Shown here: one piece after another, positions 9,830-15,800 of the stretch | How positions within the stretch are numbered: the stretch's first letter is position 1 | Layout of the letters: the number at the start of each line of letters is the position of its first letter | DNA from: Anabaena sp. FACHB-1237 | GTDB taxonomy: Bacteria > Cyanobacteriota > Cyanobacteriia > Cyanobacteriales > Nostocaceae | Length of the DNA: 64,000 nt | Direction of reading: 5' to 3' | NCBI RefSeq assembly: GCF_014696225.1 | Contig: NZ_JACJPV010000013.1 | Coordinates: forward strand, 1 to 64,000 | Notes under the pieces: generated by a model | The model's input: the letters and a program-made list of their open reading frames with translations, nothing else | The model's database searches: none | What the model was told of the DNA's origin: nothing | Made by a program: the position numbers and the translations under genes

Positions 9830-12800
9830 ATGGTTACATCACAATACACACCCTCCAGAAGAGAAACTATTTTAGCTGATATTCGTTCTCAAACCTCTAT
9901 TTTATTAGGTTTCGATGATCCATCGGATCTGGATATTAATACTTCCTTGCTAGAAATGGGTGCTGATTCTATTGCTATGATGGAAGCGGTAGCTAAAATT
10001 AAAAAGACCTATGGTGTTCCCATTGCTATTAGACAGTTTTTTGAAGACCTAACAAATATTGATGCCTTAGCAACATATATAGATAATAATATTCCCCAAA
10101 AATCAGAATTAAACTTTCCACAACCGATACAACCTATTCAAGAAGTACAAAAAGTACCAGAAATATCTACACCACAACCAATATATCAACAACCACCACA
10201 AGCAAATCAAGAGGTCAGAATATCAACCAGTCAGGAGAATTATATTGTACCCAATCACCAATTACCAATCACCAATTACCAATCACCAATTACACCAGTT
10301 TATGAAACTCAAGACGCAGTGGGAGATTCAGTTTTAGAAAAAATCATGCGCCAACAACTGCAAATTATGTCTCAGCAGTTGGAAATATTCAGAGGTTATG
10401 AATCTCAACCAGTTACTCAACAGCAAGTAATTGCGCCAACTCCCATACAACAAACATCAATACCGCCAACTCCTATTCAACAAACACCAATACAACAAAC
10501 TAACTCCCAACCCACAACCAAAAAACCAGCAGCGAAAACAACCATTGCTGGACCTTCAGAACTGCGGAAACCGAAAACTGGAGGACTGACAGCACAACAA
10601 AAGCAGCATATTCTCGAACTGACAGAAACCTACACAAAAAAGACTGCCACCTCCAAAAAACTCGCACAAAAGTATCGTCCTGTATTAGCTGATAGTCGAG
10701 CATCCGTAGGATTTCGTCCATCAGTCAAGGAAATGTTATATCCCCTTGTCGCTGAACGTTCTGAAGGAGCAAGAGTTTGGGACGTTGACGGTAATGAATA
10801 TCTGGATTTAACAATGGGACAGGGTGTGTTATTATTCGGACATCAACCCGATTTTATTATGGATGCCATTAAAGAACAACTAGAGTTAGGTATCCAATTA
10901 CACCCTCGTTATCATTTAGCCGGTGAAGTTGCGGAACTGATTAAAGAGTTAACAGGTGTAGAAAGGGTATGTTTTTCTAACTCTGGAACAGAAGCAGTAA
11001 TTACCTCTCTACGCATTGCTAGGGCGGGTACTGGCAAAACTAAAATAGTCATGTTTGAAGGTGCATATCATGGACATGGAGACTATACATTAGTTAGAAG
11101 AGAAGTAGAAGATGGCATAGCCAAAACTGTAGCTTTTGCATCTGGTGTACCTGCCAGCGTGGCTGAGGATATGGTAGTTTTAGATTATGATAGTCCTGAA
11201 AGTTTAGCATATATAGAAGCTAATGCCCATGAATTAGCAGCGGTTTTAGTTGAACCTGTACAAAGTAATAGACTTTCACTACAACCAAAAGAATTTCTTA
11301 TCAAATTAAGAGAAGTCACAGAAAGATGTGGAGTAGCTTTAGTATTTGATGAAGTAACCACAGGTTTCCGCTTCCATCCTGGTGGCGCACAGGCATGGTT
11401 AGGTATTCAAGCGGATATTGTCAACTATGGCAAAGTTATGGGTGGTGGAATGCCCATAGGTGTAATTGCTGGTAAAGCCAAGTTTCTGGATGCAGTGGAT
11501 GGGGGAATGTGGAATTATGGTGATAATTCCTTCCCAGAAGTAGAAAGAACCTTTTTCGGTGGTACATTTTGTATGCACCCCTTAGCGATGGTTTCGACAA
11601 AAGCTGTATTGCAAAAATTAAAAGATGAAGGACTAGCATTACAGGAAAGACTGCATCAAAAAACCAAATATTTAGCCACAACATTAAACAATTATTTTGT
11701 GGAAAATGATATTCCCATTGAAGTGGAATATTTCAGTTCTATTTTCAGATTCTCCTTTACCCAAAATCTTGATCCCTTCTTTTATCATTTGATTAATAAA
11801 GGTTTGTATGTGTGGGAATGGCGGAAATATTTCCTATCTACCGCCCATACTGATGCTGACATTGAATTTATCATTAAGGTGGTAAAAGAAACTATTGAAG
11901 AAATGAAAGCAGGGGGTTTTTTTTTAACATCCACAACAACTAGTAATGGTGGTAAAAAGGTAGAAATTCAGGAGTTAAAAAATCCAGAAGATGAAATCAA
12001 AAGTAATCAAAATAAAGGATTTTGGGTAAAACGTAGTGTCCATAAAACTCCTGAAATTACCATTATTCCCAGAAAACCTCACAAATTAGAATTTAGTCTG
12101 TTCTATTTTGGCAACTATAATTCTGAATTTAATCCAGATAAATATAGCTTGTTATTTTCTGGGGCAAAATTTGCTGATGAACATGGATTTTCTGCTGTAT
12201 GGTTACCAGAAAGACATTTTCATGATTTTGGTGGTTTTTCTCCTAACCCTTCCGTTTTAAGTGCAGCTTTAGCTAGGGAAACTAAACAGGTAAAATTGCG
12301 TGCAGGTAGCGTAGTTTTACCTTTACATCATCCCATTAGAGTAGCAGAAGAATGGTCAGTAATAGATAATTTATCTCAGGGAAGAGTGGGTATTGCCTTT
12401 GCTTCCGGTTGGCATGAAAATGATTTTGTATTTGCCCCAGATGCTTTTGGTAAACATCGAGAGTTAATGTTTACTAATATTGAAAAAGTGCAAAAACTCT
12501 GGCATGGTGAAAAAATTACCGTAAAAAATGGCACTGGCAATGATGTGGAATTAGGCATTTACCCTCAACCCATGCAATCAGAATTACCTATCTGGATTAC
12601 CATAGTAAATAATCCTGATACCTATATCCGTGCTGGAGAAATTGGGGCAGGAATATTAACTAATTTGATGGGGCAAAAAATTGAAGATTTAGCGCGGAAT
12701 ATTCAATTATATCGCCAAGCATTGTTAGATAATGGTCATGATATTAATTCTGGTCATGTAACAGTTTTATTACATACATTAGTTGGGGAAGATTTAGAAA

Positions 12801-15800
12801 TTACCTGCGAAAAAGGTCGGCAACCAATGTATAATTACATGACTTCTTCCATCGGACTTTTCAAAAGTATGATGGGAAATCAAGGTTTATCTACTAACAT
12901 GGATGAATTAACCGATGATGATAAATTGGTAATTTTGGAATCTGGTTATAAGCGATATGTAGAAAATAGCGCGTTAATTGGTACTCCAGAATCTTGTATT
13001 CCTATTATTGAGAAATTGCGGGGAATTGGAGTTGATGAAATTTCTTGTTTGATTGATTTTGGGGCTGAGGAAGATGTAGTTTTAGAAAGTTTACCCTATG
13101 TCAATCAAATTAGAGAATATTATCAAAATCAAACTGAGAAAATACCTTTAACAGAAGCACAAAAACAGTTATGGTTCTTGGATAAGTTAGGAGAAGATAG
13201 TGCAGTAGCTTATGTTGATTCTTTGTATGCTGAGTTAAAAGGTAATTTAGATATTGCACTTTTACAGGAGTCTTTAAATACCGTCATTAATCGTCATGAA
13301 GCACTAAGGACTAGAATTGATAATGAGGGGGAATTTCAAGAGATTTTACCCTTTGTTAATGTAGGAATTGAAGTAATTGATTTTACTCATTTATCAGGTA
13401 ATGCACAGGAAACAGAAATTAAATCTTGGTTAGAAGCACAATTCAAACAGCGATTTGATTTAACTCAAGCACCTCTTTTTCAGGTTTATCTACTCAAATT
13501 AGATGCGGAACTTCACAGATTAGTGGCCAAGATACATCATATTATCGCTGATGGTTGGTCTGTGTCTTTGGTATTGCAAGAAGTGACTCAGTTATATTCA
13601 GCTAAATGTCAAAGGAAGTTTATTTCTTTACCAAAAACTAAACAGTTTCAAGACTACAGCGAATGGCAAAATCAACAAAGTCAAACTGTAGAAATGCAGA
13701 TACAGGAATCTTACTGGTTAAATCAGTTTGCTAATGATATTCCTGTGTTAAATTTACCTACAGATAGACCACATCCAGCAATGATGAGTTATCGGGGAAA
13801 TCGTCAAAGTTGGAAATTAGATAGTGATTTAACTAAGGCCATTAAGCAAGTAAGTAAAAAACAAGGTTGTACATTATTTATGACTTTGTTGGCTGCTTAT
13901 AAAGTATTGTTACATCGGCTTTCTGGTAATCAAGAAATTGTGGTGGGAATACCCACATCTGGACGTTCTTTCCCTGGTAGTGAAAACATTGTAGGTTATT
14001 GCGTTCACTTATTACCTATTAAGAGTAGTTTAGATGCTGCTGTTAGTTTTGGGGAATATTTAAAGAACATTCGCGCAATTTTATTGGATGGTTATGAACA
14101 TCAGGATTATCCATTTTCCACATTGTTGAATAAGTTAGATTTACACAGAGATTTTAGCAGGCCAGCTTTAGTATCTGCGGCATTTAATTTAGATTTACCT
14201 TTGGGTAGGCCAACAATGTTTGGTGTGGAAATGAGTTTCTTGTCCCCTCCTAAAATTCCTTTAGCTTATGATATTTATTTGACAGTAACAGATGCTAATG
14301 ATGAGTTGTTTTTAGATTGTGGTTATAATTTGGATGTGTTTAATGATGAGACTATTCAACGTTGGTTACATCATTTCCAAAATTTGTTAACTGCCATTGT
14401 ACAAAACCCTCAACAATTAATTAGAGAAATACCCCTTTTAACTAGTGCTGAACAGTTAGAATTGTTGGTTACTAGAAATCAAACTGAGAAAAGTTTTCCT
14501 GCTGATAAATGTCTCCATCAATTATTTAGTGAACAGGTAGAAAAATATCCTGATTCTAGTGCCGTGGTATTTGCAAATCAAAGGTTAAGCTATCAAGAAT
14601 TAGAGGAAAAAAGCAACCAATTAGCCCATTATTTACAAAGTTTGGCAGTGAAACCAGAGGAAATTGTGGGGTTGTGTGTTGAGCGATCGCTCGATATGAT
14701 AGTAGGATTACTAGGTATACTCAAAGCTGGCGCTGCTTATTTGCCCCTTGACCCTAGTTTTCCCAAGGAACGTTTAACATATATGTTAGAAGATGCTAAA
14801 GTCAACATCTTGCTAACTCAAACCGCAGTTACATCAAGCATCCCCAGCACCACAGCGAAAATTATTACCCTTGACAGTGATAGTAACATCATTAGTAAAT
14901 ATCCCACAACATCCCCAGTTAGCACCGTAAAACCCGATAACCTCGCTTATGTAATTTATACATCTGGTTCAACGGGACAACCTAAAGGGGTAATGATTGA
15001 ACATCATTCTATTGTCAATTACACTACCAGTATTATTGACCAGTTAAAAATTGAACCTGGTAGTAGTTTCCTCCTCATTTCTACCGTTAGTGCAGATTTA
15101 GGCAATACCATGATATTCCCCGCACTCTGTACAGGTGGACAATTACACATTCTGTCATGGGATGAAGCGGCGGATGCAAAACGATTTAGTCAATATGTGG
15201 CGAAAAATGCCATTGATTATATTAAAGCAGTACCTTCTCATTTAATTGCTTTACAAAATCCTGCTAAACCCACAGAAATATTACCCCGCAAAGGTTTGAT
15301 ATTAGGAGGAGAAGCGACATCATTAACTTGGGTAAAAAATATTCTGGAACATAAGCCCAACTGTAGAATTTACAATCATTATGGACCGACAGAAACTACA
15401 GTTGGGGTGCTTACCTATCAAGTAAACCCGAAAAAACCACTACCAGAAATAGCAACCTTACCGCTACAAAATCCCATCTATAATACTCACATTTATCTAT
15501 TAGATGATAACTTAAAACCTGTTCCTGTGGGAGTTCCAGGAGAGATTTATATAGGTGGTTTAGGAGTGGCTAGGGGATACTTAAATCAGCCCGAGTTAAC
15601 AACAGCTAAATTCATTGATAAAGATGATGAAAGACTGTATAAAACGGGAGATTTAGCGCGATATTTACCCTCAGGAGAAATTGAGTTTATTGGTAGGGTA
15701 GATAATCAGGTAAAAGTACGTGGTTTCCGGGTGGAATTGAAAGATATTGAGTCTGTAATTACTCAACATCCTGATATTGAAACATCCACAGTTATCCTCA

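Follow-up and report, generated by a model that had tools for sequence, protein, structure and literature searches.

An AblA-type start without a ketosynthase in an anabaenolysin-family locus of Anabaena sp. FACHB-1237 and a candidate trans-acting KS-AT-TE partner

How does a lipopeptide synthetase obtain its acyl chain when its first protein begins with a carrier domain and no ketosynthase (KS) stands in front of it? This question is raised by the gene at positions 9830-17212 of the forward strand in a 64-kb stretch of DNA from Anabaena sp. FACHB-1237 (contig NZ_JACJPV010000013.1, positions 1 to 64,000; hereafter, the window). The gene encodes a nonribosomal peptide synthetase (NRPS) in which an N-terminal carrier (T0) is followed by an aminotransferase (AMT) and a luciferase-like monooxygenase (LLM). 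An earlier note on this DNA held that T0 must carry a keto-acyl group for the AMT/LLM pair to act on, a point that we retain, and proposed that T0 receives either a ready-made keto-thioester loaded in trans or an alpha-keto acid, both regarded as an undescribed loading logic. From its sequence, the encoded protein is very probably of the AblA type, AblA being the enzyme with which a lipopeptide synthetase of the anabaenolysin family begins. The explanation that we prefer for the locus as a whole, and consider probable, is an AblA-type start whose T0 is extended in trans by a separate protein composed of KS, acyltransferase (AT), and thioesterase (TE) domains.

Architecture and identity of the first synthetase protein

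The gene is a single open reading frame (ORF) of 2460 aa, for which Pfam and NCBIfam models gave the domain order T0-linker-AMT-LLM-C-A(FkbM MT)-T, where C, A, T, and MT denote condensation, adenylation, carrier, and methyltransferase domains. The carrier-AMT-LLM tridomain had been placed at 9872-13120 in the earlier note, and the domain matches showed that it was bracketed correctly. T0 (9866..10105, aa 13-92) matched PP-binding and ACP_SdgA_C in Pfam and has the phosphopantetheine-accepting Ser47 in a GADS motif (9968-9970). The linker between T0 and the AMT (10106..10738, aa 93-303) is rich in Gln, Pro, and Thr by composition; the spacer of about 200 aa described previously measured 211 aa, with 15.6% Gln and 11.8% Pro. 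The AMT (10739..11818, aa 304-663) is a class-III pyridoxal phosphate (PLP) enzyme (Pfam Aminotran_3, E=1.5e-52) with the PLP lysine, Lys535, in a YGKVMGGG motif (11432-11434), and the LLM (12092..13114, aa 755-1095) is an FMN monooxygenase of the MupA/Atu3671 type, matching TIGR04020 over the whole model (positions 1-341) with 517 bits against a cut-off of 244. The chain from the carrier through a class-III AMT with its PLP lysine continues into a Pfam C domain (13136..14467, aa 1103-1546; HHIIADG motif). This C domain was 47-59% identical to the C domains following AMT and Ox domains in relatives, whereas its identity to the C domains of gene 4 was 32-35%, and it is predicted to take the T0-bound acyl chain as the donor. 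It is followed by an Asp-specific A domain (14525..16822, starting at aa 1566; Stachelhaus code DLTKIGHVGK), which is split by an FkbM-type MT (16007-16570, aa 2060-2247; Pfam Methyltransf_21), and by the T domain of the Asp module (16907..17098, aa 2360-2423; Pfam PP-binding). All of these features lie on the forward strand.

A misplaced start or an upstream extension of the ORF was ruled out by an in-frame TAA two codons 5' of the ATG and by the 584-bp upstream region, which has 31% GC and 13-18 stops in each forward frame. No KS, AT, or FAAL was found upstream or elsewhere in the 64 kb, save for the downstream KS-AT-KR-ACP gene. Furthermore, a tblastn search of the window with KS-AT, FAAL, desaturase, and KS-AT-TE queries gave no relics, the only matches being the downstream polyketide synthase (PKS) and the NRPS A domains. 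The absence of an upstream KS and the stop-filled upstream region, both stated in the earlier note, were consequently confirmed. The protein is not a beta-amino PKS module in cis, in which KS and AT would directly precede ACP-AMT in the same protein, since the ORF begins at T0; nor was any A domain or ligase found before T0 or farther upstream, as an alpha-keto-acid loading module (A-KR-T) would have.

One genome per species was scanned for relatives of the protein. The best relative was found in Anabaena sp. UHCC 0204 (L002; 73% identity over the best segment), which shares the domain order and has unrelated genes farther upstream. The ORF lengths of L002 agree with those of the anabaenolysin (abl) cluster listed in Table S2 of PMC7232259: CamA 669 aa, AblA 2457, AblB 1542, AblC (desaturase) 316, AblD 1108, and AblE 1396. 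Over its full length, the window protein was 75% identical in amino acids to the AblA of UHCC 0204 (2457 aa). Both its length of about 2460 aa and its order of ACP-AMT-LLM-C-A(MT)-T correspond to those of AblA, which has 2457 or 2477 aa. The code of the first A domain, DLTKIGHVGK, was identical in the window, L002, L005, and L035, and our extraction of A-domain codes was checked against the GrsA reference code. The abl cluster of benthic Baltic Anabaena was reportedly described by Shishido et al. in 2015.

The chromosomal context was also compared. In Anabaena UHCC 0253 (L035), the abl locus consists of camA on the minus strand, ablA to ablE, and then a RecN-like gene. In the window, a recN-like gene (30372..32099, forward strand) forms the downstream border, with 79% amino acid identity to, and in colinearity with, the gene after AblE in UHCC 0253. 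Divergently upstream of ablA, where camA stands in the Anabaena clusters, the window retains only a relic of the 5' end of camA of about 19 codons (9365..9421, minus strand), detected by tblastn with Anabaena CamA (68% identity over residues 11-29); the DNA block of the relic is also conserved with L002. In Anabaena, camA is a cyclodextrin-associated gene beside abl. L022, the closest sister contig (91% DNA identity), has an intact camA and becomes colinear with the window exactly at position 9366. The context is accordingly that of abl, with camA divergent upstream and recN downstream, though camA is not intact. Because of the identity of AblA and AblB, the shared domain order, the camA relic, and the recN colinearity, the window locus and the Anabaena abl cluster are syntenic orthologues. 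Intergenic blocks in 9246-9829, such as CATCTGATACAATAGCTCACTGATA, were common to the window and Anabaena, and they may be promoter or regulator sites.

The window and the abl loci of Baltic Anabaena have in common the series ACP-AMT-LLM-C-A(MT)-T, then KS-AT-KR-ACP, then C-A-T / C-A-T-TE, together with 74-75% protein identity, the chromosomal site, and the lack of an upstream KS or FAAL. The window differs in that camA is only a relic, the AblC desaturase is absent, AblD and AblE are fused (a fusion also listed for XPORK15F), the second A domain is Ser-like and not Gly-like, and an extra conserved secreted-type protein of 292 aa is encoded between AblA and AblB. The loading logic that the earlier note regarded as undescribed does not hold as such: the architecture is that of AblA in a published cluster, and the lack of an activating enzyme is already in the literature, a 2023 review stating that abl encodes no fatty-acid-activating enzyme (PMC10088813). 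The KS-less start is thus a hallmark of a published lipopeptide pathway and not new loading chemistry. While the AblA architecture is known, how T0 is loaded is a gap already acknowledged, and novelty may lie only in the lead to an unlinked ACP-less KS-AT-TE.

The first carrier and its candidate partner

In relatives of the window protein, the carriers corresponding to T0 are associated with KS-AT. T0 was 33-57% identical to the acyl carrier proteins (ACPs) that follow KS-AT in relatives. A T0-like carrier is fused behind KS-AT in Phormidium, Floridaenema, and others (L006-L010, L013, and L018; L009 was counted as fused, though KS matches alone were seen there). Where the protein begins with a carrier, a discrete KS-AT gene was found directly upstream on the same strand in L001, L003, L019, L020, and L021; the upstream KS and AT of L020 are two genes, and the P0013 contig probably also has a discrete upstream KS-AT. 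In these split versions, the discrete KS-AT has no ACP. In Cyanothece (L004), a divergent operon contains FAAL, two AblC-like desaturases (47-48% identity to AblC), ACP, and KS-AT. In every non-abl relative that was examined and had upstream sequence, T0 belongs as the ACP to a KS-AT-ACP module, whether in one protein or divided among several. Since the carriers of the relatives are fused behind or adjoin KS-AT, T0 of the window descends, to judge from these homologues, from the carrier that serves as ACP in a KS-AT-ACP-AMT-Ox module for beta-amino polyketides, the KS-AT half of which is often a separate protein. The earlier proposal of a keto-thioester loaded in trans consequently stands in part: a trans partner is needed, with nothing available in cis, whereas the arrival of a ready-made thioester is unlikely, the T0 of relatives being the ACP of KS-AT-ACP. 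In L001 (an ENA ERZ27258529 contig) and L020, T0-AMT-Ox modules lie mid-pathway, after NRPS modules, and the chain extended there, and subsequently aminated and hydroxylated, would be a peptidyl chain and not a fatty acid. P0010 terminates in C-T without an A domain.

Several described systems contain comparable modules. PuwE of puwainaphycin and the AM-OX modules of floridanemamide and tychonamide share the ACP-AMT-Ox-C-A-T block for a 3-amino-2-hydroxy acyl unit; AMT and Ox have been assigned to this motif in puwainaphycin (PMC4219810) and likewise in floridanemamide/tychonamide biosynthesis. The Floridaenema loci L007, L008, and L010 showed 51-52% identity (best segment) over T0-AMT-LLM, and 63-64% for AMT and LLM. 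In contrast to the window, these systems have KS-AT in the same protein directly before the ACP, and a FAAL/ACP or PKS loading region in the cluster. MycA of mycosubtilin/iturin (FAAL-ACP-KS-ACP-AMT-C-A-T) is similar in that its AMT acts on a carrier-bound beta-keto acyl group before a C domain (PMC4219810), but all of its parts are in cis, it has no LLM, and its product lacks the 2-hydroxyl. A precedent for a divided module is the scytocyclamide/laxaphycin system, in which the beta-amino PKS module is split and trans-acting and colinearity is broken, initiation being carried out by LxaA (FAAL-ACP), LxaB (a stand-alone KS), and LxaE (AT-ACP-AMT) (PMC7524897). However, the Lxa parts are clustered together, and an LLM and a TE fused to KS-AT are both lacking, whereas the presumed partner of the window protein is unlinked.

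A short Q-rich helix is shared by T0-AMT linkers and the discrete partners. In the window, the helix SVLEKIMRQQLQIMSQQLEIFRG is encoded at 10328..10396 (forward strand) inside the T0-AMT linker, and its motif, (I/V)M.QQLQ(I/V)MSQQLE, lies at aa 173-189; this was the single coding-region occurrence in the window, and AblB does not have it. Among the relatives examined, L009 alone lacked the motif in the T0-AMT linker. The four plain discrete KS-AT proteins all have it at the extreme C-terminus, and the three KS-AT-TE lineages all have it immediately ahead of the TE. That no discrete partner is without it suggests that the helix is a docking contact for a KS-AT partner. The window protein therefore has the two features of the T0 half of a split module, an ACP at its start and the Q-rich helix in the linker, the latter being necessary but not sufficient. 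The other half, a discrete KS-AT(-TE) gene adjoining the T0 gene, was not found in the 64-kb window.

Such a gene was found in close relatives. L024, L034, and the P0122 contig have abl-like clusters that are 84-89% identical in DNA to the window, and in all three a convergent gene directly after the last NRPS gene encodes a protein of 1299 aa with KS, AT, and thioesterase but no carrier. The C-terminal half of this KS-AT-TE was 42% identical to a protein of Symploca (L003), where an ACP-less KS-AT-TE lies 36 bp upstream of the T0-AMT-Ox gene and is the first biosynthetic gene; no FAAL was found within 6 kb of it. Furthermore, the producer Anabaena sp. UHCC 0253 has a second locus (L036, VILD01000006.1 362101-384437) on a contig other than that of abl. 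This locus was found via a weak match in a protein search with a KS-AT-TE fragment; the 1299-aa protein was not among the matches, and a metagenome scan with the fragment gave only distant AT matches and did not return the source contig. The gene order of L036 is FAAL-ACAD-ACP (1265 aa; ACAD, acyl-CoA dehydrogenase), at least two KS-AT-DH-KR-ACP modules, and then a KS-AT-TE of 1272 aa without an ACP, encoded at 14181-17999 of L036. The last protein has an N-terminal docking-type coiled coil, a KS that is active by its motifs (DTACSSS, HGTGT, and KTNIGH), a malonyl-specific AT (HAFH), and a type-II-like TE. Its identity was 57% with the L034 fragment, 46% with the L003 protein when compared over the whole length, and 54% with the discrete KS-AT of L019. 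As a group, the discrete KS-AT and KS-AT-TE proteins (L001, L003, L019-L021, L024, L034, and L036) are ACP-less, with a malonyl-type AT and the Q-rich helix, and in most genomes they adjoin the T0 gene; the window differs in having no such gene, and in Anabaena UHCC 0253 it is unlinked.

The ACP-less KS-AT and the KS-less ACP are complementary. A triene is common to all anabaenolysin variants; the three conjugated double bonds expected from one ACAD plus two DH modules would match this triene and would leave the variable distal ones to AblC. On this gene content, L036 is a candidate for the locus that supplies anabaenolysin with its polyene fatty acid. By extrapolation from the relatives, the genome of the window most likely carries a KS-AT-TE partner as well.

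From these features, the following route may be proposed. An unlinked FAAL-ACAD-ACP/PKS line would build the trienoyl chain, and a discrete ACP-less KS-AT-TE encoded outside the window would malonylate T0 and condense the long acyl chain onto it to give 3-oxoacyl-S-T0. On the T0-bound chain, the AMT would then convert the 3-oxo group to a 3-amino group and the LLM would hydroxylate C2, in this presumed order, to yield a 3-amino-2-hydroxy fatty acyl starter. The C domain would join the starter to Asp, the AblB-type protein (KS-AT-KR-ACP) would extend Asp and reduce the product, and the last NRPS would add a Ser-like residue and Gly, after which its TE would cyclise the chain onto the 3-amino group. 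The LLM may also hydroxylate C2 of the AOFHA residue, because the locus has no other oxygenase and its AT is malonyl-specific. We judge the action of a trans KS-AT-TE on T0 to be somewhat more likely than not. More generally, the chances are about even that anabaenolysin pathways are two-locus assembly lines in which an ACP-less KS-AT-TE uses the T0 of AblA as its ACP, possibly docking via the shared helix. No ketosynthase partner for anabaenolysin was mentioned in the literature found, which does not cover the original 2015 abl paper.

Routes for loading the first carrier

Before the routes are compared, it should be asked whether the tridomain still functions. The ratio of nonsynonymous to synonymous substitution rates (dN/dS) was calculated against relatives with dS of 0.2-0.85. 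Against two close relatives, at unsaturated dS, the ratio was 0.06-0.09 for the AMT and 0.06-0.10 for the LLM, and that for T0 was 0.15-0.21. The linkers evolve far faster than T0, the AMT, and the LLM; the T0-AMT linker was 48% identical to the Anabaena linker, compared with 83% for the AMT. T0, the AMT, and the LLM are thus under purifying selection, and by the usual tests of catalytic residues and dN/dS the tridomain is a real and functional feature. It could still be imagined that it is a decaying remnant, in a locus that lost camA and AblC, has no linked KS, and now makes no product; camA is indeed reduced to a 19-codon relic, AblC is missing, and the flank upstream of 9366 is not common to the sister contig L022, which has an intact camA there. 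However, the three ORFs (2460, 1545, and 2433 aa) are uninterrupted and retain every catalytic motif, dN/dS is 0.06-0.2 relative to sequences only 9-16% diverged in DNA, and the linked KS is also missing in known producers. We therefore regard decay as very improbable.

Among routes to a functional T0, direct loading with a preformed fatty acyl or 3-oxoacyl group, via an unlinked FAAL, an acyl-ACP synthetase, or the ACP of fatty acid synthase and with no dedicated KS, is the first option of the earlier note and the view summarised in the 2023 review (PMC10088813), and product chains of C16-C19 point to a relaxed fatty-acid pool. We nevertheless consider it unlikely, given that the AMT requires a 3-oxo group and that cyanobacteria are described as lacking beta-oxidation, so that no free 3-oxoacyl pool is expected; in addition, the homologous T0 domains belong to KS-AT-ACP modules, and the FAAL of the producer genome comes with an ACP of its own and supplies PKS modules rather than T0 directly. 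A slightly less probable route would call on no further gene: the AblB-type protein would do double duty, its KS-AT extending the acyl chain onto malonyl-T0 in trans and then acyl-Asp on its own ACP. Neither the window nor Anabaena has another KS-AT in the locus, the AT of this protein is malonyl-specific, and in many relatives a T0-type ACP is served by a protein in trans. Nonetheless, its KS-AT groups with cis modules after NRPS (62-66% identity to KS-AT-KR-ACP and KS-AT-cMT-ACP proteins) and shows just 55%, 38%, and 32% identity to the T0-serving KS-ATs of L001, L003, and L004, respectively. It also lacks the Q-rich helix borne by every discrete partner, and the dedicated ACP-less KS-AT-TE in the producer genome would otherwise have no carrier. 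As for the alpha-keto acid suggested in the earlier note, the AMT is a class-III PLP transaminase and the reaction is formally possible, but no A domain or ligase serves T0, the orthologous pathway gives a beta-amino-alpha-hydroxy fatty acid (PMC3400675), and relatives place the T0-AMT-LLM unit behind a KS. Conflicting as it does with a 3-amino-2-hydroxy C18 fatty acid as the product, this option can practically be set aside.

Several points weigh against extension of T0 by a separate KS-AT-TE. No KS-AT-TE is present in the 64-kb window, and the partner in this genome is extrapolated from relatives. The contigs L024, L034, and P0122 are probably one population, so that they count as one lineage. 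The Q-rich helix before the AMT also occurs in fused modules, which weakens it as proof of a trans partner; alone, it is not diagnostic. The scaffold of L036 has gaps inside its repeated modules, making its module count a minimum. Lastly, the canonical output of one ACAD and two DH modules is a 4,6,8-triene, whereas AHOPA, the amino fatty acid of anabaenolysin, is a 5,7,9-triene with CH2 at C4 (PMC3400675), and an unexplained double-bond shift would be needed.

If a separate KS-AT-TE does act on T0, the two-locus line would answer how abl obtains its fatty acid. Genome mining that scores only the contiguous abl locus would then recover no more than half the pathway, and a heterologous host given abl alone would yield no product.

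Downstream genes, predicted product, and other observations

The gene for the AblB-like PKS (18300..22937, forward strand) encodes a 1545-aa protein with the Pfam domain order KS-AT-KR-ACP. Its KS is active by motifs (TACSTS, HGTAT, and KSNIGH), its AT is malonyl-specific (GHSIGE and HAFH), and its KS-AT was 74% identical to the protein cluster holding the AblB of XSPORK2A/XPORK13A (ALT22122.1/ALT22104.1); an identity of 74% applies to the AblB of Anabaena UHCC 0253 as well. As in abl, KS-AT-KR-ACP follows the Asp-activating module. A 247-aa PP-binding ORF after AblB in L034 (13573-14316) and in the P0122 contig was considered as an extra carrier and rejected, since it falls in the same 90%-identity cluster as AblB and is a duplicated C-terminal fragment. 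In L034 and L024, a transposase fragment lies just before AblB.

The next gene (23001..30302, forward strand) encodes a fused AblD/AblE-like NRPS of 2433 aa with the Pfam domain order C-A-T-C-A-T-TE; a fused AblD of 2442 aa is listed for Anabaena XPORK15F (PMC7232259). The codes of its two A domains were DVWHISCIDK, which is Ser-like, and DILQLGLIWK, which is canonical for Gly. Thus, the terminal TE of abl is present, but in place of two Gly modules the penultimate A domain is Ser-like. In L024 the second-to-last A domain has the canonical Ser code DVWHISLIDK, and Anabaena UHCC 0253 has DILALGVI(W)K in both modules. Diversification of the penultimate position by recombination has been reported. 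No AblC desaturase was found in the window by tblastn with E up to 10; L002, L035, and L024 have one.

Anabaenolysin is cyclo(Gly-Gly-AOFHA-AHOPA), in which AHOPA is 3-amino-2-hydroxy-octadeca-5,7,9,13,15-pentaenoic acid and AOFHA is an Asp-plus-acetate-like residue (PMC3400675). The 3-amino-2-hydroxy fatty acid of the product would account for the AMT and the LLM in AblA. From the structure, the Asp module followed by KS-AT-KR-ACP fits AOFHA as Asp plus one acetate, lactonised. Because the second-to-last A domain has a Ser-like code, a Ser-containing anabaenolysin variant peptide is predicted from this cluster. Given that its second module is Ser-like, that AblC is missing, and that a further secreted-type protein is encoded, the locus is a divergent abl-type cluster that should make a new anabaenolysin analogue. 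Anabaenolysins are membrane-active, cholesterol-dependent cytolysins and antifungals.

The FkbM MT inside the Asp-specific A domain was 84% identical to that of Anabaena, with dN/dS of 0.06-0.09. To our knowledge, anabaenolysins carry no O-methyl group. The MT may methyl-esterify the Asp side chain and thereby activate it for formation of the AOFHA lactone.

Between the AblA- and AblB-like genes, a conserved hypothetical protein of 292 aa with a signal-peptide-like N-terminus is encoded (17285..18163, forward strand), for which no Pfam or NCBIfam match was obtained. Copies with 77-94% identity occupy the same place in L022, L023, and L024, and in L034 and the P0122 contig the place is taken by 283-aa ORFs, equal to each other in length; the protein is absent from the Anabaena abl clusters and L005. 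A role as a biosynthetic enzyme was considered and dropped, as the protein has no family match and is absent from Anabaena abl.

The genes upstream of the ablA-like ORF encode two Ser/Thr kinases, a Band-7 protein, and a DUF1400 hydrolase on the opposite strand, and the remaining genes of the window are housekeeping or unrelated. A co-directional run at 45479-51576 (forward strand) encodes a pyridine-nucleotide disulphide oxidoreductase, a hypothetical protein, an asparagine-synthase-like protein, an Orn/DAP-decarboxylase-like protein, and another hypothetical protein, and may be a small-molecule operon. In the intergenic region at 37720-37788, a 7-nt tandem repeat, ATAATTG, occurs 9.9 times with a 98% match.

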